This document shows positions 1,254 to 46,806 of a stretch of DNA of 64,000 nucleotides, piece after piece (position 1 is the stretch's first letter; the number at the start of each line of letters is the position of its first letter). This DNA comes from an uncultured Lachnospiraceae bacterium. Lineage in GTDB: Bacteria; Bacillota; Clostridia; Oscillospirales; CAG-272. The stretch lies in assembly GCA_964582375.1 (NCBI GenBank), contig CAZORL010000001.1, positions 80,065 through 144,064 on the forward strand, given 5' to 3'. Below the pieces are notes generated by a model. It saw nothing but the letters and a program-made list of their open reading frames with translations. It ran no database searches and was not told where the DNA came from. A program made the position numbers and the translations under genes.

Positions 1254-1282
1254 ATTATACCATAAATATACTGAAAATGCAA
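1254..1282 (-). promoter_or_regulatory. Sigma-A-type promoter for the CNNM/TlyC gene
   Basis: The minus strand reads TTGCAT, a 17-nt spacer, then TATAAT with an extended -10 (TGgTATAAT). It lies about 60 nt upstream of the ATG at 1194. Confidence 0.5.
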
Positions 1283-1316
1283 GACTTTTTTGAAAAATAA
1301 ATCAAAAAAGTCTTGC
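1271..1316 (-). terminator. Rho-independent terminator after the DMT-family gene
   Basis: 13-bp stem GCAAGACTTTTTT / AAAAAAGTCTTGC (1279-1316), 12 nt past the stop at 1328, followed on the minus strand by ATTTTC. Confidence 0.6.
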
Positions 1317-1327
1317 AAATTTTTGTT

Positions 1328-2167
1328 TTATCTGAATATCTGGAAACAAACGATGCCTATAACGCAGATGACACCGCCCAAGATATTTGTCGGCGAGCTT
1401 TTTTCGCGACGCAAAAGCCCGATGAAAAAAAGGACCGCAAGTATCATCGGTTGAATAAAAGCATAATCCGAGAGCGATACCGCAATGACCGCATTTTCAA
1501 GCAGCATGCCTGCGGTGTTCGGTATTCTGACGAGTGCAACCTTCAAAACTCCCGATCCCTTTTCACGAAAAAGACGCGGCAGATCGATCTTGATGAGCAA
1601 TACGATCGAAATGATCAAAAATGCCGCGAAAAGTGCGAGTGTTGAAGAAATGTAGGGCGTAAATGCCTTGACCACAAGTCCGTAAGAATATTTCGACATT
1701 ATGTAGAGAAAAAGCGGCAGAGCGATCTTTTTGTAGTTGATTTTTATGGACGCTCCCGAACGTGCAATAAGGACAAGCCCGACCGCCGAAAGGCAGATGA
1801 AGACGATCGGAAGAGGAGCGAGTCGTTCGCCGTAGAAGATATCGGTAAAGTATGACGCAAAAAGCGATAGCCCCAGCCATGCTTTAAGCTCAAATGCCGA
1901 CAGTTCCTTAAGAACCCTTGCACTCATCTGAAACTCAAACATTTTGCAAAGAGCGATAAGCAACACGGCAACGATCGATCTTATGTCGAGCTTTATGTAA
2001 ACATCTTGAAAAGGCATGATCAGTGCGAGAAAGACCGACATTGACGAGCACATCAAAAAAGTGAACTCATCACCGCTCAGTTTTGCCCCGACTATCGCAT
2101 ATTTGTCACTCAGCGAACAGATCGTGTAGCAGACCGTTACACCGAGCATCATAAGAACAGCATTCAT
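1328..2167 (-). CDS. DMT/EamA-like multi-pass membrane transporter
   Basis: 279-aa ORF that is almost entirely hydrophobic, with about 10 helices in a two-half layout typical of EamA/DMT carriers. No catalytic motifs. Confidence 0.55.
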   Translation of the reverse strand: MNAVLMMLGVTVCYTICSLSDKYAIVGAKLSGDEFTFLMCSSMSVFLALIMPFQDVYIKLDIRSIVAVLLIALCKMFEFQMSARVLKELSAFELKAWLGLSLFASYFTDIFYGERLAPLPIVFICLSAVGLVLIARSGASIKINYKKIALPLFLYIMSKYSYGLVVKAFTPYISSTLALFAAFLIISIVLLIKIDLPRLFREKGSGVLKVALVRIPNTAGMLLENAVIAVSLSDYAFIQPMILAVLFFIGLLRREKSSPTNILGGVICVIGIVCFQIFR

Positions 2168-2175
2168 GACTTAGA

Positions 2176-3354
2176 TCACCATCTGACCTTCCATCTATCT
2201 TTGATATTTCCGACATCCTCGCAGACTTGATCGCCCTTTTCACAATCGAGAGCTCGAAGTTCTTCAAGATGTTCTTCAAATAATGCCTCGTCAAAATTCA
2301 GCGAAATTTCTTTCCCGAGTATTGACGAAAGGTAGGCTGCGTTTGAGATCTTCAGCGAATTAAGCCCCTCGCGCCCGTCCGCTATCGGCTCACTGCCGTC
2401 GATTATCGAGCGTGTAAAGGTCTCAAGAACCGTCGCGTGTCCGTCGGGCGCGTCTGCGGTAAACTCGCTGTAGTCAAGCTCGGGCATGGCAAATCCCGTC
2501 TTTGCTTCAAAGCAAAATGCTCGCTCGGGAGTGTGCAGACGCCACCATTTGAGACGCCCATCTTCCATGACGATTTTGCCGAGATCGCCCGAAATCTCAA
2601 GTCGGTTAGTACCGGGAGCCTCCCCGGTTGTCGTTATAAATGTCGCTCGCGCACCGCTTTTGTATTTTGCGGTTATCGTGACATCATCCTCGACGGCAAT
2701 GTTGTGATATTTTCCGAGATCACAGACGGCGTACAGTGAGTCGGGCATGCCGAACATCCATTGCCACAGATCAAGATTGTGCGGTGCTTGATTTAACAGA
2801 ACACCGCCTCCCTCGCCGCGCCATGTTGCACGCCACGAGCCCGAGTTGTAATATGCCTGCGTTCGGTACCAGTTCGTGATGATCCATACAAGTCGTTTGG
2901 GCTGACCGAGCTGTCCGCTTTTAATAATATCGTGTGCCTTTTTGTATATCGGATCAGTGCGCTGATTAAACATGATGCCGAATTTCAGCCCCGAGCGGTC
3001 TGCCGCATCGATCATCTCACGCACCTGCCTTGTGTAGACCCCTGCAGGCTTCTCTGTCAGAACATGCACTCCGCGCTCGAAAGCGTCGATGGCTATGCTC
3101 GGGTGATATATGTGCGGGGTCGCTATGAGTACCGCGTCAACAAGCCCACTCTCGAGCAGGGAAATGTGATCCGAAAAGCAGGTTATCTCGTCGATGTGAT
3201 GTGCTTTGTCCATTTTTTGCGGATCGATGTCGCAAACGGCGGTAAGTCTTGCCGACGGACATTTTCCGGACATTATATTATCAAAATGTCCACTGCCCAT
3301 GTTGCCAAGTCCTATTATCCCGAGCCGCACGCGACCGTCTTCGTATCTGTTCAT
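2176..3354 (-). CDS. Gfo/Idh/MocA-family NAD(P)-dependent oxidoreductase
   Basis: N-terminal Rossmann motif GIIGLGNMGSGH and the family EKP motif (HVLTEKPAG). 392 aa. The start abuts the upstream stop (TAAATG). Confidence 0.8.
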   Translation of the reverse strand: MNRYEDGRVRLGIIGLGNMGSGHFDNIMSGKCPSARLTAVCDIDPQKMDKAHHIDEITCFSDHISLLESGLVDAVLIATPHIYHPSIAIDAFERGVHVLTEKPAGVYTRQVREMIDAADRSGLKFGIMFNQRTDPIYKKAHDIIKSGQLGQPKRLVWIITNWYRTQAYYNSGSWRATWRGEGGGVLLNQAPHNLDLWQWMFGMPDSLYAVCDLGKYHNIAVEDDVTITAKYKSGARATFITTTGEAPGTNRLEISGDLGKIVMEDGRLKWWRLHTPERAFCFEAKTGFAMPELDYSEFTADAPDGHATVLETFTRSIIDGSEPIADGREGLNSLKISNAAYLSSILGKEISLNFDEALFEEHLEELRALDCEKGDQVCEDVGNIKDRWKVRW

Positions 3355-6177
3355 TTACCGTCTGTCCTTTCTTTTTCGACCTTTCTTGACAAATTTTGCT
3401 TTGGCGAGTTCGAGAACGATCGACAATCCGACGGTCAGTATCGGTATTCCGCACCATGCCGTACCCGACATTTTGTAAATTCCGAAAAGTGCCCCGAAGG
3501 TCGGATATATCGTTCCAAACAGCACTATGAGCAATATTGAAAGGAAAACAGTCAAAAGCATGTTCGATATAGTAAGATTGCCGCTGAACAGCTTGTCTCT
3601 GTTTCCGCCCTCGACAAGCAGGACGATGGATGACAAAAGAAGTGTTATAAATATCGGGGTGCAAATGGTTGCCGCACTCGCTCCCTCTGTTTTCAAAAGA
3701 ATGATCGCAAACGCTATGCTTGCAACACCAAGCCCCGTGCCCGTGATAAGCGAGGCAAGAACGCCATGTCGCTTTTTTCGTGATCTGCCGACAGGGAAAG
3801 ATGACAGAATATCTCTTGGCGGTTTTTCAAATGCGATGATCATAACTGCGGCAAGATCGTAGACCATTCCGCAGATAAGCAGCTGTACCGGCGTCAAAAT
3901 AAAGATTCCCGACACAAAACTGTATAAAAGTATGATAAGTCTTGCGATATTGACCGTGAGGAGATAACTCATTAGTCGGTAAATGCCGAAATAGATCGCT
4001 CTCGCACGTTCAAGCGAAGAAACAAGCGCATTGATACCGCCCGATATGTCGTTTTTCGAAACGACTGACAAAATAACATCGGATACAAATCGGAGCGCAT
4101 CGCATCCGCTCGGAGCACCGCCGCCCGCTTTGCTTACGCTCAGCGGAAGATTTTCGCTCTTTTTGTTGCCCGTCTTTCTCTTTTTATCGAGATTTTCATG
4201 CTTGTCCGAGAGTGTGATGCTCTGGGTGTAGGCGACATTTGCCTCACGCATTGCGGTTATTTCCTCGAACCGAAGTCCGAGAAATCCCACATTATGACCG
4301 CGCTTTTTGAGAAGTCGTATCACACGCCTCTCGCAGGTGGCATCCATGTTTTCAAATACCTTTACATGATCGATCGATTCGAGCAGTTCTTCATCGGTCA
4401 GACCGGACAGGGATGTCGAATCGATTACTTCGTCCTCAAACATGTCGGTGATGATCCCTGCGGCACTTGCGATCCGAAGACCTCGCTCGGAGCTATCGGA
4501 GGTGAATAAGAGAACATTTACCCCGGCAGCTCTGCATCTGTCAACAGTTTGCTCAATGTTCGGAAGAAGCGGTTCGGAAAAGCAGAGGAAGCCTTCAAAC
4601 ACCATGTCGGACAGCGTGTCAGACAAACGGACGAGCGTTGTGTATATCGATCTTGCGGCGGCAATTCCCGAGACGATACCGCGCTCTCTGCTCATTTGTG
4701 CTGCGATCGTTCTTAGTCTGCTGCGTATGACGCTGTTCATCGGGCGAACCTTGCCCTTTATATCGCGATATCTGTTGCAAGCCTCAAGAATGCTCACTGC
4801 ATCACCGCGTGCGATGACCACATTGTCGTCGCCGTGCTTGGTCAGCGTGACCTCAAAAGGACAGTAATCGCACATTCCGAGATGCTCGCACAGTGCGTAT
4901 TTTTCGTCAAGCTCGCGATTGTACAGACCGCTGTCCTCTGCCGATCTGATAATAGCCTCCTCCTCGGATGTGTAAACATTGTTGCCTGCGGCATTGATCG
5001 ACGCAAGCCTTTCGCCGTAAATACCGGTCGATATCACGGCGTAGGAAAGAACTCTTGCGCAAATGTCGTCAAATCCGCCTTTCCCTTTTTCACACCACGC
5101 ATCCTCGTCGTTGTCTATGTAGATCCGATCAAGCGCAATGTCGCCGGTCGCGGCGGCACCCTCGGGAGGTATGATCAGCGTGTCAAGTTCGCATATATCC
5201 GACAATTTTTCGGCGTTTTTTATGAGCGCACCCTTGGCGATCCGACCTGATCTGCCAAGCGTGCCGAACACACCGACAGAGACGATCATATAGCCAAATA
5301 TCGCATAAAATTCGGTCATTGCTCCCGAGCCATATGAAAGCGCACAGATCAGTCCGTCAAGTGCGTCAAATTTGCCGAAAGACGGGAGCATGTTGACTAT
5401 CGTTAAAACAAAGGTCAGTGCTATTGCGGCGAGAGTTGCGACAAATGATATCCCCCTGAGCTTTTCAAACACCGCAAGCTTGTCGTATGATACCGCTGAT
5501 TTGTTCTTCCCGCTTTTGCATACAAGCGTGTCCTTGCCCATGCGACAGGCGATCGCCTTGCCGCTTCCCGAGCGAACGATCGTTGACGCATAGACCATGT
5601 TCAGTGCCTCGTGCGGCTGAATAAGCCTGATGTTGCGATATCTGCTGTCCTTGCGTATGGGCGATTTGGCGTCGGTGATGCCGGCTTCGAGAAGAACGAG
5701 GTTTTCGTCTTCGATAAGCCTTGCGTCACACGGAACGATGTCGCCGGCGGACAGACAAATAATATCTCCAAAGGCAACGTCCTCTTGACGCACGAGCATC
5801 ATCCTGCCGCCTCGCATGACCTTCGCGCTCGGCAGAGCAAGATGCCCCATCCTTGCAAGTACCCCTTGCGCCTTGACGTAGGTGACGGCGACAGCAACAT
5901 AGTTCAGCGCAAGAGTTATTATAAGCACGATCGCGGTCTCGGTGTGACCGAAAAGCACGGCGGGGATGCAAGAGAGAGCAAGCAGGATCGACAGCGTGTT
6001 TACCGACAGTCGGCGAACATATTCGCCAAACGATGCGCGAGGTATCGGAAAAACTCTGTTAGGCCCGTTTTTCTCAATTCGCGCTTTTGCCTCTGCCGAT
6101 GTAAGACCGGATATAGGATCGGTCTCAACTTTTTTAGCCACCTCATCGGGTGACAGATCGTACCATCTGGTTGCCAT
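3355..6177 (-). CDS. P-type (type II-like) cation ATPase homologue with degenerate catalytic motifs
   Basis: 940 aa. Cation_ATPase_N-like start (LSPDEVAKKVETDPISGLTSAEAKARIEKNGPNRV), A-domain GDIVPCDARL, and TM bundles at both ends. The TGES, DKTGT, TGD and GDGxND positions read ITDAKS, ICELDTLII, FTSD and GLRFEE. Confidence 0.75.
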   Translation of the reverse strand: MATRWYDLSPDEVAKKVETDPISGLTSAEAKARIEKNGPNRVFPIPRASFGEYVRRLSVNTLSILLALSCIPAVLFGHTETAIVLIITLALNYVAVAVTYVKAQGVLARMGHLALPSAKVMRGGRMMLVRQEDVAFGDIICLSAGDIVPCDARLIEDENLVLLEAGITDAKSPIRKDSRYRNIRLIQPHEALNMVYASTIVRSGSGKAIACRMGKDTLVCKSGKNKSAVSYDKLAVFEKLRGISFVATLAAIALTFVLTIVNMLPSFGKFDALDGLICALSYGSGAMTEFYAIFGYMIVSVGVFGTLGRSGRIAKGALIKNAEKLSDICELDTLIIPPEGAAATGDIALDRIYIDNDEDAWCEKGKGGFDDICARVLSYAVISTGIYGERLASINAAGNNVYTSEEEAIIRSAEDSGLYNRELDEKYALCEHLGMCDYCPFEVTLTKHGDDNVVIARGDAVSILEACNRYRDIKGKVRPMNSVIRSRLRTIAAQMSRERGIVSGIAAARSIYTTLVRLSDTLSDMVFEGFLCFSEPLLPNIEQTVDRCRAAGVNVLLFTSDSSERGLRIASAAGIITDMFEDEVIDSTSLSGLTDEELLESIDHVKVFENMDATCERRVIRLLKKRGHNVGFLGLRFEEITAMREANVAYTQSITLSDKHENLDKKRKTGNKKSENLPLSVSKAGGGAPSGCDALRFVSDVILSVVSKNDISGGINALVSSLERARAIYFGIYRLMSYLLTVNIARLIILLYSFVSGIFILTPVQLLICGMVYDLAAVMIIAFEKPPRDILSSFPVGRSRKKRHGVLASLITGTGLGVASIAFAIILLKTEGASAATICTPIFITLLLSSIVLLVEGGNRDKLFSGNLTISNMLLTVFLSILLIVLFGTIYPTFGALFGIYKMSGTAWCGIPILTVGLSIVLELAKAKFVKKGRKRKDRR

Positions 6178-6221
6178 AACTCTCCTTTCCGCCGCTATGG
6201 GCTAATGCTTTTGTGTTTTTA

Positions 6222-8567
6222 CTAAATGCAGGATACCACGAGATTTGTCTCGTCCGCATCGATGAATGTCTGACTGATGCTTCCGTTGTAATCACCGATA
6301 AGCTTGTTTGCAAGCACATCTTCAACCTCGCGCTCTATTACGCGGCGAAGATTTCTTGCCCCGAACTTTCTTGAATAGGCTTTTTTTGCAAGCAGTTTTG
6401 CCGCCGCATCGGTGTAGTGCAGAGCGATCGATTTTTCCGCAAGCGTCTTTGCGAGATCGGAAAGCTGAATTTTCGCGATCTGCGTGAAATCATCTTCGGA
6501 CAGTGATCTGAATGTGATGATCTCGTCAACTCTGTTGATAAACTCGGGACGAAGGAACGCCTCGAGTGCCTTCATCGTTTTGCCTTCCTCGGCTGAATTT
6601 GCCGTCGCGGTAAATCCGGGTGTCGCATCAACTCCGACCGCACCCGCGTTTGTTGTCATAACAATGACCGTGTTCTCGAAATTGACCTTGCGTCCCTGTG
6701 CGTCGGTGATCAGTCCGTCGTCAAGGATCTGCAAAAGAATGTTCATAACATCCGGATGCGCCTTTTCGATCTCGTCAAAAAGGACTACCGAATAGGGCTT
6801 GCGGCGAACCTTTTCGGTCAGCTGTCCTGCCTCGTCGTATCCGACATAGCCGGGAGGTGCACCGATTATCCTCGATACGGCATGCTTCTCCATAAATTCG
6901 GACATATCAAGCCTGATGAGCGTCTCGGGCTGATCAAACAGATCGGCGGCGAGCGTTTTGACCAGCTCGGTCTTGCCGACTCCGGTCGGGCCTGCAAATA
7001 TAAATGATACCGGACGGCGTTTGCTCGATACTCCCGCACGATTGCGCTTGATGGCACGCGCGACCGCATCGACTGCGGCGTCCTGACCGATTATGCGTGA
7101 CTTTAGTCTGTCGGCAAGCGTGTCGATCCTGCGAAATTCGTTTTCGGTGATGTTTGACGCAGGTATGCCCGTCCAGATCTCAATGACATCGGCAAGCTCG
7201 GATGTGCTGAGTGCCACCTTGTCGCGTGCCGCAGATGCCTCGTCAAATTCGGCTCTCGCGCGAGCAGCCTCTGCACGAAGCTCGGCAATCTTTTTGTATC
7301 TCTCGTCTTCATTGCCCTCTGCGGCATCCTCCGCCTCTGCCGCCTCGCACTCGGCATTTATGCGCTTCAATGCGGCGGCGGCAGCCTCGGCGCGTGCGAT
7401 CTCGGGCGATGTAAGCGCAAGATGCGCCGCCGCCTCGTCTATCAGGTCGATGGCTTTGTCGGGTAAAAATCTGTCGGTGATATATCGCTCAGACATTACC
7501 ACGGCACGCTCAACTGTCATGTCGGGGATCTTCAGACCGTGAAAAGTCTCGTAATACCCCTTGATGCCCTTCATTATTTCGATCGTATCGGCAACCGACG
7601 GTTCTTCTATTACGATAGGCTGAAAACGCCTCTCGAGTGCAGAGTCTTTTTCGATGTATTTTCTGTATTCGGCAAGCGTTGTCGCACCGATCAACTGTAT
7701 CTCTCCACGCGAGAGAGCGGGCTTTAGAATGTTCGCCGCATTCATACTGCCCTCGCTGTCGCCCGCACCAACGATCGAGTGTACCTCGTCGATGACAAGG
7801 ATAATATTTCCCAGTGCTTTCGTCTCCTCGATAAGCCCCTTTATACGCGATTCAAACTGACCGCGAAACTGCGTTCCGGCGACAAGTGCCGTGAGATCGA
7901 CAAGGTGTATCTCCTTTCCGATAAGTCTTTGCGGAACATCGCCCGATGATATTTTCTGCGCAAGAGCCTCGGCGATCGCTGTCTTTCCGACACCCGGCTC
8001 GCCTATAAGACAAGGATTGTTCTTTTGCCTGCGGCAGAGTATCTGCATCATTCTCGCAAGCTCGCGCTCACGACCGACAATGCGGTCAAGTTTTCCCTCA
8101 CGGGCACTTTTGGTCAGATCGGTGCAATACATTTCAAGGAATTTGCGACCCTTCTGAGCCTTGTCTTTTTTGGGCTTTTGCTGATTCTGACCGTTGTTTT
8201 GGGCAAATCGAGGGTCAACTCCCGAAAGTTTTCCGAAAATCCCCCCAAGCCCGAGATTTCCGAGCATTTTGCCGAAATCCAGAGGGGGCGTTTTGCCCAT
8301 CGGTGCGTTTTCGTTATCGACCGCCTCCACGGCACGAGAGTCGTCATCTCCCGTATCGGACGCCTCGAGCATGTCGTCAAGCTCCATGTCCATGCGGTCG
8401 AGATCCTCGTCTGAGAGTCCCATGTTCTGCAAAATGTCGTTTACGGGCTTGATCCCAAGCTCTTTCGCACATTTTATGCAGATCCCTTCATTTATTGTCT
8501 TGTCACCGTCAAGTCGTGTTATAAAGACAACGGCAACTCTTTTTTTACAGCGTACACACATTTCCAT
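6222..8567 (-). CDS. clpE: Hsp100/Clp double-ring AAA+ ATPase with N-terminal CxxC...CxxC zinc ribbon (ClpE-type architecture)
   Basis: N-terminus [13 protein letters not shown]...[12 protein letters not shown]1 Walker [13 protein letters not shown], an Ala/Glu-rich coiled-coil middle domain, and D2 Walker [13 protein letters not shown]. No Clp_N repeats. Confidence 0.75.
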
Positions 8568-8644: not shown

Positions 8645-9196
8645 TTATCCGAAAATATAGGTGAATAAATTGTGCTCGAAAAACCACTTTGCGACAATGG
8701 AGCTCTCAAACGCCTCCGCAGTCAGCCAATCGATGCGCCCGATCAAAAACTCGGAAAAACAGAAGAGAACTATCGAGAGTATCTGCGCATATCCAAGTCC
8801 GAGGACGAGTCCGAGCAGGGCACCGCCCAGGTGATTTACACTTCCGATGATCGGAAGTTTGCCAAGTCCGTCTGCAAATTTGGCAAGCAATTTGCAGACG
8901 AGCGATGCAACAAGGAAAACAATCCCGAAAGCAATGGCAGTCGCGATGGCACCCGAATCAAGTACCTTGTCTGCCAGCTTGTTGATCAGCGAGTTGTCAA
9001 TGTGAATGCCATCGACCGCATCGGCGATAAGCGGCTCTATAAGCACTCCCACCGAATGGCAAAGAGTGCTCGCAAGTATCAGAGAGATGACAAATCCCGC
9101 TATTCCGACAAGAACCTTTATGATACCTTTTTTAGCGTAGATAACCGTTAAAAGAAGTATGACCGCGATGACCGCAACGTCAATTATCATGCTCAT
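8645..9196 (-). CDS. CvpA-family small membrane protein
   Basis: 183 aa with 4-5 hydrophobic helices. The N-terminus MSMIIDVAVIAVILLLTVIYAKKGIIK resembles CvpA-family starts. Confidence 0.5.
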   Translation of the reverse strand: MSMIIDVAVIAVILLLTVIYAKKGIIKVLVGIAGFVISLILASTLCHSVGVLIEPLIADAVDGIHIDNSLINKLADKVLDSGAIATAIAFGIVFLVASLVCKLLAKFADGLGKLPIIGSVNHLGGALLGLVLGLGYAQILSIVLFCFSEFLIGRIDWLTAEAFESSIVAKWFFEHNLFTYIFG

Positions 9197-9224: not shown

Positions 9225-10622
9225 TTAATTACTTGACTGCTTTAACTTGGCAAGCGAAAGCCTTGTCGGGTGGCAGGCGTATATGTCTCGGCCCTTTATA
9301 AGCAGTTCGCATATGCTGTCGTCCGTCAGCTCGCCGATGATCTTGGCGTCAGACGAGATCAAAATGATGCCGCCGTCTGTTATCAGTGCCGTATCATCTC
9401 CTGCAGTGTACATTTTGTATATATTCCGATCGGTCTCGAATGAACGCTCTGCATCGGCACTCACCTCGAGCACTTTTGATCCGATGTTGTCTGCACCGCT
9501 CTTGATCAAAAGCAAAACGCGATCTTCTCCGATCTTGTAACTAATCGTGCTTCCATCGATCGACGAATAATCAAGCTCTTTTGTGATCTTGCCGTCTTTG
9601 TCGATAAAGCAGACCTTGTTGTCACCGACGAGTACGATCGAGCCGTTCTCCAGATATCTTGCCTCGTACGGAATCGTCCCCTCGAGCGTTATGACAAAAT
9701 CCGGCTCTGTCGATGATGTCGAATGCACCGCGACCTCGGTCATGCTTTTGCCGTTCTCACCTGCATAAAACGATGTGACTATCACCTGCGAGCCGTCGTT
9801 TGATATGTCGATCGATACGGCGTATTTGTTCTTTCTGATGGTTTGGACGAGCTTCATGCTGTCACTGTAGACATTTACCATGCAGTAATGCGATCTGTCG
9901 CGAGTCGCAACGGCATAATATCCTGAATCGGATATCGCCGCATCGGTTATCGGGTAGTCAAATTTTTCGCTTCCGAGCGAATTAAAATAAGAGTAGAGCG
10001 AGTATTCGTTGCCGCCCCTGTCAAAGCAGAGAAGATAGCTGCTTGAGCTTTTCAGCACGGGGGATGAGTAGCTGTTTTTTTCGTCGTAAGCCTTGTTTCC
10101 CGAGCTGTCACATATCATAATGCGCCCATTGCCGACGCTTGCAAAATAATCCTTGTAGACAGCGAAAACACGTCCGTCGTCACGGCTGTATATAATGCCG
10201 CCTGTGTCCTCGGATGGTATGGTCGATGCTTCGAGTCTGAAATTCACATTTCGCATCAAAAATCTGAAATTTTCGACGGTTATCTCGTCGCGGTAGGCAA
10301 TGAACATCATTCCAAGCCAAAGTGCGAAGATGAGAACCGATATCCAAGCGGCAATTCTGAACCTGCCGGATATTTTCAGATAATACATGCTTTGAAGCTC
10401 GCGTTGCTCTTCTTCAAGAGTCGGATCGTCGGGTGGCAGAACATAGAGATTCTCGACTTCATTCTCGGTCAGCGCACCGTTCGGCTTTCTTTTTAACCGC
10501 CGCATCCTCTTTTTTTCGAGTTTTAATTGCTTTTTCTCGGCAGGAGTGAGCTTTTGAGTGCTTTTTTGGGTCAAGGAGAGGCTTCGTCTTGCTCTTTCCT
10601 TTTTATCTTTATCCTTTTTCAT
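9225..10622 (-). CDS. Membrane-anchored protein: poly-basic N-terminus, one TM helix, beta-rich extracytoplasmic domain (possibly DUF5711-like)
   Basis: 465 aa. A Lys/Arg-rich first 60 aa, a TM helix (FRIAAWISVLIFALWLGMMFIAY), then repetitive beta-strand-like segments rich in S/G/D/Y. Confidence 0.5.
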   Translation of the reverse strand: MKKDKDKKERARRSLSLTQKSTQKLTPAEKKQLKLEKKRMRRLKRKPNGALTENEVENLYVLPPDDPTLEEEQRELQSMYYLKISGRFRIAAWISVLIFALWLGMMFIAYRDEITVENFRFLMRNVNFRLEASTIPSEDTGGIIYSRDDGRVFAVYKDYFASVGNGRIMICDSSGNKAYDEKNSYSSPVLKSSSSYLLCFDRGGNEYSLYSYFNSLGSEKFDYPITDAAISDSGYYAVATRDRSHYCMVNVYSDSMKLVQTIRKNKYAVSIDISNDGSQVIVTSFYAGENGKSMTEVAVHSTSSTEPDFVITLEGTIPYEARYLENGSIVLVGDNKVCFIDKDGKITKELDYSSIDGSTISYKIGEDRVLLLIKSGADNIGSKVLEVSADAERSFETDRNIYKMYTAGDDTALITDGGIILISSDAKIIGELTDDSICELLIKGRDIYACHPTRLSLAKLKQSSN

Positions 10623-20426: not shown

Positions 20427-23400
20427 TCAGGATGCGTACCTCGAGTAAATGTAGTCCTCGATCATTCGCTTCTCGAGCGCATCGCCCGATGCGTAAGCGA
20501 TATCGGCAGCCTCGTGAAGATTTGCGACGATGCCGCCGCCGACTGCCCCCTCACCTGTCGCAGTAAAATAATATGTGTGCTCAAATCCGTTTGCGTCTTT
20601 GTATGTGATGTACGGTCGTGCGACAAAATCGGTGTCATAATACTTGCTCTCGTATCCGTTTACAAGTGCTGTGTATACAATGTATGTGTCGTATTCGTAA
20701 ATGCTGTTTGTCGCAGGGACGATCAGTGCTTTCTTACTGCTCAGATAGGCGGTAGTTGCGCTTCCTTTTTTAAGATTCCCCGAAAGTTCGGATCGCATGA
20801 TGACCACAGTTCCGTAGCCGATACCCTTCGATGTGCATGAAAGATCGTTTGGCAGGGAATTGTCGGAGTGAAGTTTGGCAATGTCCAAAAGCAGACTGCG
20901 ATTTACCCTCGTGTAAAAACGCATGCCGGTCGATTGCCCGTCGGCACGTATACCGACACCTGCCGATGAAAGACCCTCAAGTGTGCCGCTTCGGTCAAGG
21001 TTGTCGGATGGGTCGAGATTTATCTTGCCGATCTCGATCCAGCCTGCGTAGAGTGTCAGGTCGCCCGTGATCTTAACCTCTTTGCCGACCGCCTCCGATC
21101 TGTCAAGTGCCAGTGCGGCACGGTTGGTCTTGAACCATCCCGCAAAGATGTATCCGTCCTTTGAAAGCGTGTATTTGCTTATGTCAATGTATGTGTTAAC
21201 ATCGACCGCCTGCGGATCGTATATGTCCTTTCCGTCAGAGATAAATGTCATCGTGAATGAACGGAATTGGCATTCGATCTCGGCATCCAGTCCGCTCGGG
21301 ATCGCAGAATATACCCACTCGGAGAAGGTTCCGTCGCTCTTTTTGGTTCTGTATCTGATAGAATAGTCCTGCGGATCGATACCGTCGGGAAGAGCAGGCA
21401 GGGGATTACCCTCGGAGTCTACCGACCACTCCGTGTCGCTCGGCATCTCTATCGAGAGTATCGAAAAGCTTGCTGTCAGATCGTTCTCGGTCGTGACCGT
21501 GATGACAGTCCGTCCGACCCCGCCGATCATGACCTGCCCCGACTCGGACACCGTGGCAACGCTCTCGTCACTTGATGTCCAGACAAGCTTTCTTTGCGTT
21601 GCGTCCGACGGCAGTATCGTGACTGTCGGTTGTATGCTGTCTCCTTTGATCGATACCTTGTTCGAAATATCAAGCGATACCGATGTCGGGTAGATCATTT
21701 TCAGCTTGACCGTTATTTCAAACGTGTCCGAATATCCGCTCGCAGATACGCGAACGGTGTAGTCTCCTGCCTTTGACATGTTGTATCCGGTGCAAGTGTA
21801 ACCCTCAATAACGACCGATGTGCCGTCCGAGAAATATCCTGTTACCTCAAGTCCCGATGTGTCTAACGTGTCGCCGACGAAATAGTTCGTCTTTGAAGGA
21901 GGCGAGGTTATCTTGATCGATGTCATGCGTCCCGATATCGGAACGGCATAGTCAAGCCGCACCCACCCCTCTTTGTCGTTGTATGATGTCTTGCCCCAGT
22001 AAAAATTTCCGACCTTGAGTATCTCGGTCACGGTAAGCACCGTTCCGTTCGGAATGGTGCATATTATGGAGGATGACGTTGTCGGCAGTTCTCTCATGTT
22101 GAGAATGTCGGCAAGCGTCTGATATGTACCCGGGGTCAGATCGTCACCGCCCACAACTCCGCTCGATGTGTCAATGTCCTTCGGCATGTTGTAATAGAGC
22201 ATTGCACGCGAGCCGTAGCTTTTGTGGAAGGAATCCCAAGTCCAGGTGCGTGTGTAGATTATGCAGTTTTTGCCCGTCTGCGACATGTTGCATTCGTATG
22301 TGATAAAGCCTGTCGAGCTGACCTGCATTACAAAGAGCGAATGTCCGCTGCCGGTGCGAAGATGACCGCCCGGTCCGGCTGTTGTGAACATCTCCTTTAT
22401 CATGTTTGATGTCCACTTGCCCGCACTCAGTGTTCCGCCGAAAGCGTTGTAGAACTTTTTAGCCTCCGCATCGTGATAACCGTATGCACGCCATTGACAA
22501 AATCTTGCAAAACCATAGCACTGCGATGAAAGCAGATCGACCTTGCAGGTAGCCTTGACGCCTGTCGGATAATATCTCATGCAGTTGCATCGTGCAGGAG
22601 ATGCAACACATATTCCTTGGTTGTGACATGTGCATGATTTTCCGTTTTTGGTGAAGAACGAACCGACCGGATAGTCGGCAAACGGAAACGAAACGCCGTT
22701 GATGGTCGCCGCCGATGTCGTGTCCGCAAATTCTGGCATATAAAGTGCGTTTCCGTCAGACTCAAGATTTTCGTCGAACTCGATAAGCAGGGAAGAGTCG
22801 ATCGAGTAAAGATAGCTCACATATTGATCGTTCTTGCCCTCATAGTCGAATTCGCCGCCGTTTGGCTCGATTATGTAATCGGGGTTGTCCGCATAGAGGA
22901 TAAGCTCGTCGTCATTTGACATGCAAAGGGATGCAAAATTGTCAAGCACCGTCTCGCAGGTCGGATATTCTCCGCTCGATGTGTGCATTAGCCGATCGCC
23001 CGATTTGTACCATATGTCATCTCCGCAAAGTACAAGCGGACCGTCCGCCTGCGCCGAGGCAAAGAGCAACTCGGAGTTTTGACCGTTGGTGGCTACCTTG
23101 AATATCGATCCGTCACGCCCGACACAGACAAAGTCCTCTCCGTCATAGCAGATCGAGCTTGCAGATATTTGCGCGATAACATGAAAATCGCCGTCTTTCT
23201 CGTTCGACATGAGATTTCCGTAATCGTCAAGCATATAGGTAACCTCTCCGATGTCAAGTGCCTCTGCGGAGTTGTGTATGTCGCTCTCCGGATCACTCTC
23301 TTTTCCCTCTTTTGTCAGTATCGGCAGGGCGATCGCCACAGCGGAAAATAGAGTTATCGCGGCGATCATCACCGCTCCCGCACGCTTGATTTTTGTGCTT

Positions 23401-23435
23401 TTTTGTGTGTTTGATGATTTATTAAATAAACGCAT
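20427..23435 (-). CDS. Large secreted/anchored multidomain protein (Cys-rich papain-like module, SH3b, Ig-like/Big_2, Listeria-Bacteroides-type repeat)
   Basis: Start set at ATG 23435 (MRLFNKSS...) with an AGGAG 8 nt upstream, followed by a signal/anchor helix AVMIAAITLFSAVAIALPIL. SH3b-like segment (NMRELPTTSSSIICTIPNGTVLTV...GWVRLDY). Big_2-like segment (VSLD...VWTSSDESVATVSESGQV...ITVTT). YIFAGWF...LYAGW repeat. Confidence 0.6.
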   Translation of the reverse strand: MRLFNKSSNTQKSTKIKRAGAVMIAAITLFSAVAIALPILTKEGKESDPESDIHNSAEALDIGEVTYMLDDYGNLMSNEKDGDFHVIAQISASSICYDGEDFVCVGRDGSIFKVATNGQNSELLFASAQADGPLVLCGDDIWYKSGDRLMHTSSGEYPTCETVLDNFASLCMSNDDELILYADNPDYIIEPNGGEFDYEGKNDQYVSYLYSIDSSLLIEFDENLESDGNALYMPEFADTTSAATINGVSFPFADYPVGSFFTKNGKSCTCHNQGICVASPARCNCMRYYPTGVKATCKVDLLSSQCYGFARFCQWRAYGYHDAEAKKFYNAFGGTLSAGKWTSNMIKEMFTTAGPGGHLRTGSGHSLFVMQVSSTGFITYECNMSQTGKNCIIYTRTWTWDSFHKSYGSRAMLYYNMPKDIDTSSGVVGGDDLTPGTYQTLADILNMRELPTTSSSIICTIPNGTVLTVTEILKVGNFYWGKTSYNDKEGWVRLDYAVPISGRMTSIKITSPPSKTNYFVGDTLDTSGLEVTGYFSDGTSVVIEGYTCTGYNMSKAGDYTVRVSASGYSDTFEITVKLKMIYPTSVSLDISNKVSIKGDSIQPTVTILPSDATQRKLVWTSSDESVATVSESGQVMIGGVGRTVITVTTENDLTASFSILSIEMPSDTEWSVDSEGNPLPALPDGIDPQDYSIRYRTKKSDGTFSEWVYSAIPSGLDAEIECQFRSFTMTFISDGKDIYDPQAVDVNTYIDISKYTLSKDGYIFAGWFKTNRAALALDRSEAVGKEVKITGDLTLYAGWIEIGKINLDPSDNLDRSGTLEGLSSAGVGIRADGQSTGMRFYTRVNRSLLLDIAKLHSDNSLPNDLSCTSKGIGYGTVVIMRSELSGNLKKGSATTAYLSSKKALIVPATNSIYEYDTYIVYTALVNGYESKYYDTDFVARPYITYKDANGFEHTYYFTATGEGAVGGGIVANLHEAADIAYASGDALEKRMIEDYIYSRYAS

Positions 23436-23607
23436 TATGCGAGTCTCCTTGATTTTTTGCCGACTGCGAAAAATATAAATAAGGGTCAACATTTGCCGAC
23501 CCTTTAATTTTACCATATTTCCGTCTTCATTTCAAGCCCTTTTTTATAATTTCTGAACTTTTTTGCTCCGTTTTTTTTGAGATATTTTAGCAGTGCGGCA
23601 GATCTTT

Positions 23608-42483: not shown

Positions 42484-45400
42484 TTATTTTGCGACCGTCG
42501 CTTTAGTGGATTCCTTTTCACGCTTTCTCTGACTTTGTGCCTGTCTGAGATTGTCCTTTGCCGTTGCGAGCATAAGCTTTATGCGGTTTAGCTGATTGAC
42601 CTCGGATGCGCCCGGATCGTAATCGACGGCGGCGATATTCGAGTAGGGATAATCCTTCTTGATCGCCTTGATGACACCCTTTCCGACGACATGGTTTGGC
42701 AGACAGCCGAACGGCTGTACGCATACTATATTTGGTGCGCCGTCGTGTATCAGCTCGATCATCTCTCCGCAAAGGAACCATCCCTCGCCGTATTGATTGC
42801 AGATCGAAAGATATTTCTCGGCATATTCGGCAGTCTTTTCAATATCTGTCGGGGCAGAGAAACGCTTGCTGTTTTTAAGCGCATCCGCCGCAGGCGCACG
42901 AAGTGCCTTCAGTGCGTCAATACCGACATGCGATACGAGCAGACCCCAATATTGTGTTCCAAGCTCCTTTACCTTCGGTATCATGTTGTAGATGCACATC
43001 GACAAAAAGTCAAGAAAATCGGGAACGACCGCCTCTGCCCCTTCTTTTTCAAGAAGCTCAACAAGATTGTTGTTGGCGATCGGCATGTATTTTACGAGTA
43101 TCTCGCCGACAATGCCGACACGCGGCTTTTTCATGTCCTCGTATATCGGGAGAGTATCAAAATCGCTGACTATCTCACGGCATATCTCTTTGTACGAGAC
43201 TTTTTTGACCTTGCCCGAGAGAATGTCCGAGCATCTGCCGATCCATTTGTCGCGCAGTGCGTTTGCCGAACCGAGTTTGATCTCGTAAGGACGGGTGCGA
43301 TAGAGACAACGCATGATAACATCGCCCCAAATAAGCCCCTTCATTGCATCGATGAGCATGCCCGGCTTGATCTTGAATCCGCTGTTCTTCTCAAGCCCCT
43401 GTGCACTGAGCGATATGACCGGGATGTGAGAAAGCCCCGCACTGTCAAGTGCACGTCTGATAAATCCGACATAGTTGCTTGCTCTGCAACATCCGCCTGT
43501 CTGCGTCATCATGAGAGCAAGCTTTGAGGTGTCGTATTCGCCCGAGAGTACTGCGTCCATCATCTGCCCGACGGTTATGATCGACGGATAGCAGGCATCG
43601 TTGTTGACATATTTGAGCCCCATGTCCACCGCACGCTTTGACGGCTTGTCAAGCATTACGATGTTAAATCCGTTTTTCACAAATATGGGTTTCAATATGT
43701 CAAAATGTATCGGACTCATCGAGGGAGCGAGTATCGTATATCCCTCATCAAACATCTCTTTGGTAAATTCGACACGCTTGTAATCATATTTTTTCGTGTC
43801 GTTCCCCTCACCGCAGGAGAGTGCCTTTTTCATCTTCATTGCGGCGATAAGACTGCGCACTCGGATTCGAGCCGAGCCGAGATTGTTGACCTCGTCGATC
43901 TTAAGCACCGTGTAGAGCCTGCCCGCATTTTCGAGTATCTCGCACACCTGATCGGTGGTTACCGCATCAAGACCGCAACCGAATGAGTTAAGCTGAATAA
44001 GCTCAAGATCGTCACGACCGCAGACATATTCGGCGGCGGCATAAAGCCTTGCGTGATAGGTCCATTGATCGAGTACGCGAAGCTCACGACCGCTGCCCGC
44101 AGGGAGCGGAAGGCTGTCCTCGGTAAATACCGACAGCCCGAAGGATGCGATCATTTCGGGGATGCCGTGGTTGATCTCAGGATCGATGTGGTAGGGTCTG
44201 CCTGCCAAAACTATGCCGCACTTTCCTTCACGCTCCAGCTTGTCAAGCAGTCGTGCCCCTTCTTTTCTGATATCTTCCTTTGCGCGCGTTTGCTCTGCCC
44301 ACGCGAGTGCGGCGGCACGCTTTACCTCGCTCTTGTCGATCGACCAGACATCAAAGCATATCTCGCAAAGCCGTTTCGTGACCGTCTTTTCGTCGGTGAA
44401 TGCAAGGAATGGGTGGAGATATCTCACATTGTTTTCGGAGATCTCCTCCATGTTGTTCTTTATGTTCTCGGGGTAGGAGATGACCATCGGACAGTTGTAA
44501 TGATTCTTTGCATCCGAGCTTTCGGTGCGCTCGTAGAAAACACTCGGATGAAAGATCGTAGTTACTCCCTTTTCGATCAGCCATTTTACATGACCGTGAG
44601 CAAGCTTTGCGGGGTAACACTCAGACTCTGACGGAATGCTGTCCATTCCGAGCTGATATATCTTTCTGCTTGAGTAGGGCGAAAGAACTACCGAAAAGCC
44701 GAGCTCTTTGAAAAATGTTGCCCAGAACGGGTAGTTTTCGTATATGTTCAGAACTCTCGGAATGCCGATGACGCCGCGAGGAGCATCCTCTGCCGTAAGT
44801 GACTCGTATCCGAAGATCCTCGATCTCTTGTATTCGACCAGATCCTCTCCGCGTTGCCCGACGCCGTTTGCGCCGACCATCTTTTCGCATCTGTTTCCGG
44901 TGATGTATTTTTTGTTCGTGCTGAACGTGTTGACCGTCAGCATGCAGTTATTTTCACAGCCGCCGCAACGGGTCGTTCTGCTCTGATATGAAAAGCTGTC
45001 AAGCGAGTCAAGAGAGATGATCGAGCTTTCCTTGCCGTCGAAATGTTCTCTTGCGATCAATGCCGCACCGAAAGCTCCCATAAGACCGCTGATGTCGGGA
45101 CAGACAACATTTGTTCCCGTGATGCTCTCAAGTGCGCGCAGGACTGCCCTGTTGTAAAATGTTCCGCCCTGAACAACTATGTGACGCCCGAGATCATCCG
45201 AGCTTGCAAGCTTTATGACTTTGTACAGAGCGTTTTTGATGACAGAGTAAGCAAGACCTGCCGAAATGTCCGAAACGCTTGCACCCTCTTTTTGTGCCTG
45301 CTTGACATTCGAATTCATGAAAACGGTGCATCTTGTGCCGAGATCGACCGGGGCTTTTGCAAAGATCGCCTCTTTGGCAAACTCCTCAGCCGACATCGAA

Positions 45401-46806
45401 AGCGAGTTTGCAAAATTTTCGATAAATGAGCCGCAACCGGATGAGCATGCCTCGTTGAGCATGATCGAGTCGATCGCACCGTTTTTGAGGCGTATGCACT
45501 TCATGTCCTGACCGCCTATGTCAAGCACGCAGTCGGTCTCGGGATCAAAAAACTTTGCCGCAGTTGCATGTGCAACCGTTTCGACCTCGCCCTCGTCAAG
45601 CGAAAATGCCGCCTTCAAGAGCAGCTCGCCGTATCCGGTCGAGCACGCACGCGATATCCTTGCAGTCGCGGGAAGTGTGTCCCTCAGTTTTTTCATCGAG
45701 TCAAGGGCGGTCTTTACCGGATCGCCTTTGTTGCTCTCGTATGATGAATATAAAAGCTCGCCGTCCTCGCCGATAAGTGCGAGCTTTGTTGTGGTCGATC
45801 CTGCATCAATGCCCAAAAAGCAGTTTCCGACATATGTGGTCACATCACCCTTTTTGACTGTCGCTTCGGCGTGACGCTTGACAAACTCGCTGTATTCGCT
45901 CTCGTTTTTGAACAGTACGTCAAGACGCTTGGTCTCAAATTCCGAAACACCTTTCTCCGAAAGGGCGTGCGAAAGCTCGGAAAGCTTTATCTCACTTTGC
46001 GAGCCGTCGTTTTCCTTCTCGGAGGTCATTGCCGCGCCGATCGCGGCAAAAAGATGCGAATTTTCGGGGTCGATCACCTCGTCCTTGCCGAGATCGAGCG
46101 TTTTGATAAACAGCTTCTTAAGCTCGGGCAAAAAGTGCAGAGGACCGCCGAGAAAAGCGACCTTTCCTTTGATCGGCTTGCCGCACGCAAGTCCCGAAAC
46201 CGTCTGATTGACGACGGCTTGAAGAACCGAGGCGGCGATGTCTTCTCTTGCCGCACCGTCGTTTATGAGCGGCTGAATATCGGTCTTGGCAAAAACGCCG
46301 CATCGTGACGCTATGGGGTAGATCTCTCGCGCATTTGCGGCAAGAGTGTTAAGCCCCGAGGCGTCTGTTTGAAGCAGAGCTGCCATCTGATCGATAAACG
46401 ATCCCGTACCACCCGCACATACGCCGTTCATCCTTTCGTCAAGTCCGCCCGCAAAATAGATGATCTTTGCGTCCTCACCGCCGAGCTCGACCGCAACATC
46501 GGTGAGCGGATGATACTTTTTGAGTGCCGTCGCTACCGCAACGACCTCTTGAACGAATTTGATATTCAGCGATTTTGCGATGCCGATGGCACCCGAGCCG
46601 GTAATGCAGGCGGAGAGCGCAAGATCGCCGAGCGAATCGCGTGCCTCGTCGAGCAGACCGATCAGTGTCTGCTTTGTGTTTGCAAGATGTCGGCGATATT
46701 TTCCGAATACCGTTTTGCCCTCTTCGTCAATTATCGCAAGCTTAACCGTCGTTGATCCAATGTCAATTCCGGCATGAAAGCCGTGAAGAATATTTCCTTC
46801 TTTCAT
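42484..46806 (-). CDS. 1440-aa fusion: two BcrAD/BadFG-type (2-hydroxyacyl-CoA dehydratase activase-like) ATPase domains + dehydratase-component-like C-terminal region
   Basis: Two copies of the ASKHA/activase start motif (GIDIGSTTVKLAI at aa 14 and GIDAGSTTTKLAL at about aa 333), each followed by CAGGTGSF- or CSSGCGSF-type cluster-ligand regions. A Cys-rich linker (RCGGCENNC) and a long C-terminal region resemble the 'CoA-substrate-specific enzyme activase' large proteins. Confidence 0.8.
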   Translation of the reverse strand: MKEGNILHGFHAGIDIGSTTVKLAIIDEEGKTVFGKYRRHLANTKQTLIGLLDEARDSLGDLALSACITGSGAIGIAKSLNIKFVQEVVAVATALKKYHPLTDVAVELGGEDAKIIYFAGGLDERMNGVCAGGTGSFIDQMAALLQTDASGLNTLAANAREIYPIASRCGVFAKTDIQPLINDGAAREDIAASVLQAVVNQTVSGLACGKPIKGKVAFLGGPLHFLPELKKLFIKTLDLGKDEVIDPENSHLFAAIGAAMTSEKENDGSQSEIKLSELSHALSEKGVSEFETKRLDVLFKNESEYSEFVKRHAEATVKKGDVTTYVGNCFLGIDAGSTTTKLALIGEDGELLYSSYESNKGDPVKTALDSMKKLRDTLPATARISRACSTGYGELLLKAAFSLDEGEVETVAHATAAKFFDPETDCVLDIGGQDMKCIRLKNGAIDSIMLNEACSSGCGSFIENFANSLSMSAEEFAKEAIFAKAPVDLGTRCTVFMNSNVKQAQKEGASVSDISAGLAYSVIKNALYKVIKLASSDDLGRHIVVQGGTFYNRAVLRALESITGTNVVCPDISGLMGAFGAALIAREHFDGKESSIISLDSLDSFSYQSRTTRCGGCENNCMLTVNTFSTNKKYITGNRCEKMVGANGVGQRGEDLVEYKRSRIFGYESLTAEDAPRGVIGIPRVLNIYENYPFWATFFKELGFSVVLSPYSSRKIYQLGMDSIPSESECYPAKLAHGHVKWLIEKGVTTIFHPSVFYERTESSDAKNHYNCPMVISYPENIKNNMEEISENNVRYLHPFLAFTDEKTVTKRLCEICFDVWSIDKSEVKRAAALAWAEQTRAKEDIRKEGARLLDKLEREGKCGIVLAGRPYHIDPEINHGIPEMIASFGLSVFTEDSLPLPAGSGRELRVLDQWTYHARLYAAAEYVCGRDDLELIQLNSFGCGLDAVTTDQVCEILENAGRLYTVLKIDEVNNLGSARIRVRSLIAAMKMKKALSCGEGNDTKKYDYKRVEFTKEMFDEGYTILAPSMSPIHFDILKPIFVKNGFNIVMLDKPSKRAVDMGLKYVNNDACYPSIITVGQMMDAVLSGEYDTSKLALMMTQTGGCCRASNYVGFIRRALDSAGLSHIPVISLSAQGLEKNSGFKIKPGMLIDAMKGLIWGDVIMRCLYRTRPYEIKLGSANALRDKWIGRCSDILSGKVKKVSYKEICREIVSDFDTLPIYEDMKKPRVGIVGEILVKYMPIANNNLVELLEKEGAEAVVPDFLDFLSMCIYNMIPKVKELGTQYWGLLVSHVGIDALKALRAPAADALKNSKRFSAPTDIEKTAEYAEKYLSICNQYGEGWFLCGEMIELIHDGAPNIVCVQPFGCLPNHVVGKGVIKAIKKDYPYSNIAAVDYDPGASEVNQLNRIKLMLATAKDNLRQAQSQRKREKESTKATVAK

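Follow-up and report, generated by a model that had tools for sequence, protein, structure and literature searches.

A family of apparently non-catalytic P-type ATPase homologs from Clostridia, with a remodeled membrane ion site and frequent linkage to a ClpE-like unfoldase gene

In the DNA stretch analyzed here (64 kb of contig CAZORL010000001.1 from an uncultured Lachnospiraceae bacterium, referred to below as the window), the gene at positions 3355 to 6177 of the minus strand codes for a 940-amino-acid (aa) homolog of P2A-type cation pumps in which every catalytic motif of the P-type ATPases has been replaced. The replacements extend through a large family of proteins, called dead ATPases below for brevity, and it is very probable, judging by the alignments and by the selection acting on the gene, that the protein is non-catalytic and selectively maintained. 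The explanation that best fits the data as a whole, and that we hold with modest confidence, is that this is a non-pumping pseudo-enzyme of the P2A type that serves as a membrane scaffold or regulator and is plausibly linked to the Clp-type unfoldase encoded immediately upstream. All other genes and motifs of the window whose positions are given below are also on the minus strand.

The coding sequence starts with ATG and ends with a TAA stop codon at 3355..3357. It is preceded by a strong Shine-Dalgarno sequence, AAGGAG (6182..6187), 4 nucleotides (nt) 5' of the start codon and within the 44-nt gap between the Clp gene and the ATPase gene. An earlier note on this DNA, made from the sequence alone, had listed the intact 940-aa open reading frame (ORF) but not its strand, and had assigned to its product a type-II layout with a Cation_ATPase_N-like start and about 10 transmembrane helices; this description is borne out by the Pfam matches (E1-E2_ATPase, E = 2e-17; Cation_ATPase_C, 2e-15; Cation_ATPase_N, 1e-9) and by the ten transmembrane helices of the structural model described below. 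The Cation_ATPase_N-like N terminus spans aa 5 to 68 (5974..6165), and the core of the actuator (A) domain, GDIVPCDARL, is present, as the note had it, at aa 145 to 154 (5716..5745), with G145, D151, and R153 retained in 97 to 98% of the family. The Pfam HAD "Hydrolase" domain, which covers the phosphorylation (P) domain, falls below its cutoff in the 940-aa protein (E = 0.02; 15.7 bits versus 26.4), and no curated NCBIfam model reaches its cutoff (best score among the Mg2+, Ca2+, and H+ pump equivalogs, 142 bits versus 611).

The catalytic motif columns were established by phmmer comparison with solved structures (best matches, MgtA [8uy7] at 1e-30 and LMCA1 [6zhh] at 4e-29), by searching the Protein Data Bank (PDB) with a profile built from 117 family members (LMCA1, E = 9e-105; SPCA1, ~1e-94), and by aligning the family jointly, in MAFFT, with ~55 canonical pumps from genomes. 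The three kinds of alignment concur on the loss of the motifs. All six motifs are found in each of the ~55 canonical sequences of the joint alignment and none in any family member, and this clean split confirms the loss far beyond chance. The substitutions that the earlier note had read by eye, calling the protein a candidate pseudo-enzyme, are recovered almost in full, and the profile alignments place neither a DKTGT Asp nor a GDGxND motif in the protein. The dephosphorylation loop LTGESx is replaced by ITDAKS at aa 167 to 172 (5662..5679), so that TGES reads T168-D-A-K; in the family, the Thr of this loop is mostly retained and the Glu is retained in ~8%. DPPR is replaced by EPLL (aa 535 to 538; 4564..4575), the MxTGD segment by LFTSD, with TSD at aa 559 to 561 (4495..4503) in place of the TGD of HAD motif II, and GDGVNDAPAL (HAD motif IV, with its Mg2+ ligands) by GLRFEEITAM (aa 634 to 643; 4249..4278). 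For the phosphorylated Asp, the loss stands but the register does not: the note had matched ICSDKTGTLT with ICELDTLIIP (aa 328 to 337), six residues off, and the true counterpart is LIIPPEGAAA at aa 334 to 343 (5149..5178), which puts Pro337 (5167..5169) in the phospho-Asp column. Error in the alignment by eye was thus rejected as a source of the motif loss by phmmer, the profile, and the multiple alignment, the DKTGT register being all that was wrong.

The phospho-Asp column is occupied by Pro in 110 of the 117 close relatives, inside the family motif L-[IV]-[VI]-P-[KPR]-[ED]-G, and by a wider range of residues in distant cluster representatives (Pro in 52, Cys in 11, Ser in 7, Arg and Leu in 6 each, His in 5, and others, including Val, among the 142 near-full-length representatives of the exhaustive search described below). 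A nearby alternative Asp nucleophile was considered and rejected, as neither D332 nor D346 is conserved (Thr 67, Asp 27, and Ser 18 at position 332; Asp 60, His 14, and Glu 13 at position 346). In the nucleotide-binding (N) domain, the KGA motif of the SERCA K515 loop is RGD (aa 457 to 459; 4801..4809), and M435, R457, and I501 stand where SERCA has its ATP-pocket residues F487, K515, and R560, in columns that vary across the family; the conserved HAD Lys column (motifs II to IV) holds E616. Going by these columns, phosphoryl transfer and canonical ATP binding both look lost. The aspartyl-phosphate intermediate is the defining feature of P-type ATPases, and as an enzyme the dead ATPase is, on this sequence evidence, outside that class, its aspartyl-phosphate site, TGES loop, and HAD motifs II to IV being gone. 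Its homologs in metagenome-assembled genomes (MAGs) at present carry the annotation "cation-transporting P-type ATPase" or "Ca2+-transporting ATPase." Such annotation is misleading, so that the metabolic and ion-homeostasis inferences drawn from it for many gut Clostridia are probably wrong.

A word-indexed search returned 288 homologs at E<1e-10, the best 120 of which span 93% to 30% identity at near-full coverage; within these 120, DKTG and GDGxND are absent from the canonical sites in every case and a Hydrolase domain is recorded in 3. An exhaustive profile search covered 1.84 billion cluster representatives (50% identity), from which the best 150 were taken. Among the 142 of these that are near full length, 111 have no Asp in the catalytic column, which puts the size of the family at more than 100 clusters at 50% identity, and two further representatives have a chance Asp there and no other motif. 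Orthologs of the protein singled out in the earlier note are therefore numerous, and its motif losses are common to the whole clade. When 28 family members were placed in a neighbor-joining tree with 63 canonical pumps, the dead clade was monophyletic in every one of 40 bootstraps, and its stem measured 0.87 substitutions per site; the placement of the sister group in this tree is unreliable. Monophyly on such a long stem points to a single ancient loss followed by diversification. A half-degenerate representative, P0237, retains the Asp (LCVDAEGLFQ) and has TGDA, TGA, GIGVDD, an M5 Lys, and an M6 Gly. P0237 may represent a transitional stage or may have decayed independently, and it would help to order the losses.

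The MAGs that carry dead ATPases are labeled as Oscillospiraceae, Ruminococcaceae, Ruminococcus sp., Eubacteriales, Clostridiales, Clostridia, and, in one case, Lachnospiraceae, and their sources include the rumen, rabbit, sheep, termite, and human gut; none of the dead-ATPase loci in the matches listed comes from an isolate genome. A locus filed under Bacteroidales by the NCBI taxonomy (L005; JAGHTD010000169.1, "Candidatus Colimorpha enterica") lies on a contig with a Firmicutes-type methyltransferase-ecf-truA-DUF5711-Clp-dead-ATPase block whose housekeeping proteins are 47 to 69% identical to those of the window (the dead ATPase and DUF5711 proteins are 30% and 29% identical, respectively). 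Taxonomic misplacement or faulty binning is the likely explanation.

Selection on the gene was estimated as the ratio of nonsynonymous to synonymous substitution rates (dN/dS) in pairwise Nei-Gojobori comparisons with three relatives, at unsaturated dS values of 0.38 to 0.71. The ratio for the dead ATPase is 0.097 to 0.103, next to 0.09 for truA, 0.08 to 0.09 for the GFO oxidoreductase, 0.03 for Clp, and 0.16 for DUF5711. By domain it ranges from 0.01 to 0.16, and the dead P and N domains are included in this range (0.01 to 0.15). No frameshifted copies of the ATPase were seen. With dN/dS at ~0.10 in all domains and intact ORFs across more than 100 clusters, the gene is not decaying, and the proposal that it is being retained rather than dying holds, its ratio being like those of truA and GFO. 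Taken operationally, as homology to an enzyme combined with absence of the catalytic residues and purifying selection, the term pseudo-enzyme applies to the predicted protein.

Modeling with AlphaFold2 (AF2) and the family alignment gave ten transmembrane helices together with A, P, and N domains, at a predicted local distance difference test score (pLDDT) of 89.2 and a predicted template modeling score (pTM) of 0.88. The only disordered part of the model is a basic, Lys-rich insert of ~40 aa in the P domain (aa 653 to 692; 4102..4221), absent from canonical pumps, in which residues 671 to 689 have pLDDT values of <50. Foldseek comparison with the PDB returned only P2 and P3 pumps (SPCA1, Na,K-ATPase, LMCA1, MgtA, and SERCA; E of ~1e-40), with TM-scores of 0.75 to 0.82 to E1-type states and 0.53 to 0.57 to E2 states; no functional state is read from this E1-like appearance, because AF2 conformations mirror the training structures. 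The predicted structure is, in agreement with the layout that had been proposed, a complete P-type fold with the architecture of the P-type superfamily (TC 3.A.3). The C terminus of the window protein is a short basic tail, KKGRKRKDRR; many relatives (P0129, P0137, P0138, P0130, P0115, and others) have disordered, acidic C-terminal tails of 100 to 350 aa, rich in Pro, Glu, and Ser. Domain fusions were rejected as a source of functional clues, since the long family members add only such disordered tails and no recognizable domain.

The best sequence-profile and structural matches of the dead ATPase are the P2A Ca2+-ATPases LMCA1 of Listeria (PDB 6zhf/9euq), human SPCA1 (8iwp/7yag), and SERCA. 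It shares with them the domain order (N terminus, A, M1 to M4, P/N, M5 to M10), the A-domain core, and the equivalents of SERCA E309 and D800; unlike them, it has no DKTGT Asp, TGES Glu, TGD, GDGxND, KGA, or DPPR and does have the P-domain insert. The P3B Mg2+-ATPase MgtA (8uy7), the best single-sequence match in the PDB, is comparable in length and topology and ranks below the P2A pumps in the profile search, but it keeps all the catalytic motifs. Retention of canonical features was scored over positions whose conservation among 31 canonical representatives is 90% or more, a position being counted as retained if kept in at least 70% of the 111 dead representatives. By this measure, the dead family keeps all 4 near-invariant positions of the N terminus. 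The A domain retains 14 of 22, with the losses centered on the TGES loop, as compared with 4 of 50 and 2 of 9 for the P and N domains, respectively, 1 of 11 for M3-M4, and 5 of 13 for M5-M6. The least conserved stretch of the dead ATPase is M7 to M10.

In SERCA, E309, N768, E771, N796, T799, and D800 jointly coordinate two Ca2+ ions, and the columns of these residues set the dead family apart from canonical pumps. M4 has T-E289-F (5308..5316) in place of the P-E-G of PEGLP, E289 being the E309 equivalent; this Glu is found in 115 of 117 close and 94 of 111 distant members and in 30 of 31 canonical pumps, and the Pro and Gly are lost in the family (PEG becomes S/T-E-F). M5 has N743-I-A-R746 (3940..3951), with Arg746 in the E771 column, where Arg or Lys is found in all 117 close members and 110 of 111 distant ones, versus Glu in 27 of 31 canonical pumps. 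M6 has G770-M-V-Y-D774 (3856..3870), with Gly for N796 (Gly in 109 of 111 distant members versus Asn in 28 of 31 canonical pumps) and D774 as the equivalent of D800 (Asp in 110 of 111 distant members and 31 of 31 canonical pumps). As for the other Ca2+-site columns, the family has Asn or Gln at N768 and a hydrophobic residue at T799. Of all the features of the family, this apparently remodeled membrane ion site is the most diagnostic.

It seems fairly probable from these columns that the Arg or Lys plugs the ion site and that transport is absent for this reason. The basic side chain, given room by the Gly, would fill the former ion site as a built-in cation and form salt bridges with the buried Asp and Glu carboxylates, a contact modeled on the Ca2+ sites of SERCA. 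With the acidic residues neutralized in this manner, the membrane domain would be charge-neutral in the absence of a transported ion, and the protein would therefore neither pump nor conduct. Fixed charges of a similar kind are present in active pumps: P3A H+-ATPases (AHA2/Pma1) have a built-in M5 Arg beside the M6 Asp involved in transport, and Arg795 of LMCA1 and Lys791 of the gastric H,K-ATPase are similar. The dead ATPase resembles these proteins in having a fixed positive side chain in the ion pocket, putatively paired with the M6 Asp (R746 and D774). However, in AHA2/Pma1, LMCA1, and the H,K-ATPase the charge pair tunes transport, whereas the dead ATPase appears to have no catalytic cycle. 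The lost motifs, the replacement of E771 by Arg and of N796 by Gly, and the P-domain insert together mean that it could not work as an E1/E2 pump.

The same columns bear on the idea of a passive channel for cations or protons, or of a uniporter, allowing downhill flux that is perhaps gated by the cytoplasmic domains. The equivalents of E309 and D800 are kept in 85 to 99% of the family, the whole ten-helix domain is under selection, and P-type pumps are convertible to channels, palytoxin-bound Na,K-ATPase being among the structural matches. Still, a channel is improbable: with Arg or Lys for the M5 Glu (110 of 111) and Gly for the M6 Asn, the site holds a fixed positive charge that would be expected to repel cations, PEGLP has lost its helix-breaking Pro and Gly, which expose backbone ligands, the remaining liganding positions are hydrophobic, and M7 to M10 are the least conserved part. 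Given the conserved Arg or Lys at an ion-site position that is otherwise Glu, "channel" ranks last in likelihood among the three non-catalytic roles suggested in the earlier note (channel, sensor, or scaffold).

Clues to the function of the family come from the gene neighborhood. Immediately upstream of the dead ATPase gene is a gene for a ClpE-like double-ring AAA+ unfoldase of 781 aa (6222..8567), which has an N-terminal CxxC...CxxC zinc ribbon (MCVRCKK...CIKCAKE), no Clp_N domain, and two intact Walker A/B pairs; its best matches are structures of ClpB, ClpC, and ClpE. Of 24 distinct dead-ATPase loci, 22 have a same-strand Clp gene in this position, with gaps of -1 to 74 nt and two outliers of 183 and 489 nt, and the linkage holds for ATPases only 24 to 25% identical to that of the window and for distant representatives that the exhaustive search alone recovered. 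The genes downstream of the dead ATPase vary across the 24 loci. Compared with the window locus, the dead ATPases are 24 to 52% identical and their Clp neighbors 56 to 75%, the ATPase being the faster evolving of the two. No terminator-like hairpin is present in the 44-nt Clp-ATPase gap. The linkage suggests cotranscription of the two genes and a functional tie between their products. Control of the Clp-ATPase unit by the heat-shock regulator CtsR was rejected, as there is no CtsR box in the 64-kb window. The Clp protein of the window also has an acidic or low-complexity linker extending to about aa 140, scores below every NCBIfam equivalog cutoff, and carries "PGF" where ClpA and ClpC have the ClpP-docking tripeptide IGL/VGF.

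The Clp and ATPase genes are part of a conserved block, truA-DUF5711-CvpA-Clp-dead ATPase, which includes genes for a CvpA-family membrane protein (8645..9196) and for a DUF5711 protein (9225..10622) whose N-terminal tail is basic and which has one transmembrane segment and a beta-rich extracytoplasmic part. The DUF5711 and CvpA genes always precede the Clp gene, and in two distant relatives (L090 and L093) a gene for a CDP-alcohol phosphatidyltransferase (PgsA-like) is found between CvpA and Clp. The DUF5711/CvpA/Clp block looks like a membrane-maintenance module.

Put together, these observations are consistent with a membrane-embedded scaffold or regulator whose conserved surfaces would be the N terminus, the A-domain core, and the charge-neutralized membrane core. 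The most likely role would be that of an accessory membrane partner of a proteostasis or membrane-maintenance module, acting as a docking platform, an adaptor, or a controlled client, because the gene is almost always co-oriented and nearly contiguous with the ClpE-like gene in a block that also contains CvpA and DUF5711. That the dead ATPase acts with the Clp machine itself is a tentative proposal and, in our estimate, a doubtful one. The boldest version, in which a large, ancient, and undescribed family of stand-alone dead P-type ATPases from gut, rumen, and termite-gut Clostridia, with an ion site held permanently by Arg or Lys, forms the membrane arm of a ClpE-type unfoldase, must be considered unlikely; such an arm could present or extract membrane proteins, or sense the membrane or cation state for the protease. 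If true, this would put the P-type fold to a novel purpose, with a membrane module that has no catalysis of its own being coupled to an ATPase of another kind.

Several observations weigh against a Clp-linked scaffold. Two of the 24 loci, L002 and L008, have no Clp gene upstream, L002 having instead genes for an ABC-2 permease and a PBP-like protein, and a metagenome scan found ~20 orthologous zinc-ribbon Clp loci with no P-type ATPase within 6 kb downstream and two with one. The link to Clp may accordingly reflect a frozen insertion site or a genomic accident. In addition, the contact of the Arg with the Asp and Glu carboxylates is drawn from homology to SERCA, a pure scaffold does not obviously explain a dN/dS of ~0.1 over all 940 residues, the N and P domains included, and the protein may have a non-canonical ligand or nucleotide site. 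An obligate partnership with Clp is weakened by the ~20 Clp loci without the ATPase and the two ATPase loci without Clp. The ATPase-free Clp orthologs lie in a methyltransferase-ecf-truA-(DUF5711)-Clp block that is conserved in many related genomes, and the dead ATPase looks like an accessory gene added to this block in a subset of lineages. At L008, a gene for a small canonical HAD_2 hydrolase (225 aa; 9327-10004 of that locus) overlaps the start codon of the dead ATPase.

The dead ATPase could also regulate an active P-type paralog, in a hetero-oligomer with a canonical Ca2+ or Mg2+ pump; many pseudo-enzymes regulate catalytic relatives in this manner. Canonical P2A pumps with all motifs are indeed present in Oscillospiraceae and Acutalibacteraceae, families that also have the dead ATPase, and MgtA, among the closest solved relatives, was solved as a dimer. 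In the closest relatives, moreover, a CNNM/CorC Mg2+-transporter gene is found just downstream. As no canonical pump adjoins the dead ATPase in any of the 24 loci and no second P-type ATPase is encoded in the 64-kb window, such a role has about as poor a prospect as that of a channel. The CNNM gene of the window (CNNM/CBS/CorC_HlyC, of the Mg2+/Co2+ efflux type; 1-1194), just downstream of the transcription unit, is cut by the window edge; its counterparts are seen in close relatives only (L081, 11702-13042; L087, 6492-7832; L089, 10635-11966, directly after the dead ATPase), and it is a possible hint of a divalent-cation theme.

An enzyme with altered chemistry, or a nucleotide sensor, would bind ATP or a different ligand in the N/P cleft and would work through some other residue or non-covalently. 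It would account for the confident folding of both domains in the AF2 model, for the purifying selection on them (dN/dS of 0.01 to 0.15), and for the conservation of R457-G458, S383-T384-G385-x-Y387, and E405-E406 in close relatives. These motifs are not conserved in distant members, however, and there is no nucleophile conserved family-wide at the catalytic column; with the equivalents of F487, K515, and R560 varying across the family and only 4 of 50 P-domain and 2 of 9 N-domain canonical positions kept, this alternative is very unlikely. A decaying relic or an artifact of alignment by eye can practically be dismissed: such a reading would fit the loss of every catalytic motif and the faster evolution of the family relative to its Clp neighbor, but full-length ORFs are intact in more than 100 clusters at 50% identity, and decay is refuted by this and by the dN/dS of ~0.10, the strong Shine-Dalgarno sequence and the high-confidence predicted fold also counting against it, and the profile alignments are unambiguous.

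Fused P-type ATPases of the FUPA24 type, ascribed to Chan et al. (2010), reportedly have one non-functional half. In these, an inactive module is fused to an active half, as distinct from the dead ATPase, which belongs to a stand-alone lineage that appears dead family-wide. The HAD superfamily, to which the P domain belongs, offers a precedent for non-catalytic proteins: a HAD-fold protein of Pseudomonas aeruginosa, PcrP/PA2803, reportedly acts non-catalytically (PMC12632274). PcrP/PA2803 is small and soluble and is unrelated to the dead ATPase in sequence and context. No description of a stand-alone dead or pseudo P-type ATPase family was found in the open-access literature, although an earlier description is possible, nor was any found there of DUF5711 or of a link between ClpE and P-type ATPases. 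Judged by that literature, the dead-ATPase clade would be the first branch of the P-type superfamily to consist clearly of pseudo-enzymes. It can be seen as a natural experiment on the P-type fold deprived of its cycle, and it would illustrate how a buried ion site is neutralized by a Glu-to-Arg and Asn-to-Gly swap. Its near-constant position behind a ClpE-like gene provides a concrete and testable lead to function.

The 64-kb window is part of the core chromosome, with ruvCAB, proline genes, and genes for the oxaloacetate decarboxylase beta subunit and iPGM. The same-strand gene order around the dead ATPase is S-adenosylmethionine (SAM)-methyltransferase, ecfA1, ecfA2, ecfT, truA, DUF5711, CvpA, Clp, dead ATPase, GFO, and EamA. 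The gene for the GFO/IDH/MocA oxidoreductase (2176..3354), found only in the closest relatives, has an ATG that abuts the ATPase stop codon, and no terminator-like hairpin is present at this junction. The EamA-family transporter gene (1328..2167) is the last of the apparent transcription unit in the source organism and is directly followed, on its 3' side, by a strong, bidirectional terminator-like hairpin with a 16-bp stem (1278..1317). This hairpin is the sole strong one, a few weak internal terminator-like matches being found inside the ATPase and GFO coding sequences.

An identical dead ATPase, P0040, is encoded on two metagenome contigs, one with an intact Clp gene (764 aa) and the other with Clp split into 516 aa and 218 aa; the discrepancy (L085, 7626-9931, versus L086, 7637-9931) is either an error, from assembly or a frameshift, or a disruption at the strain level. 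Elsewhere in the window are genes for a 1440-aa fused BcrAD_BadFG/DUF2229 CoA-enzyme activase (42484-46806) and for a 1029-aa surface protein with SH3_3, Big_3, Big_2, and Listeria-Bacteroides repeat domains (20427-23516).

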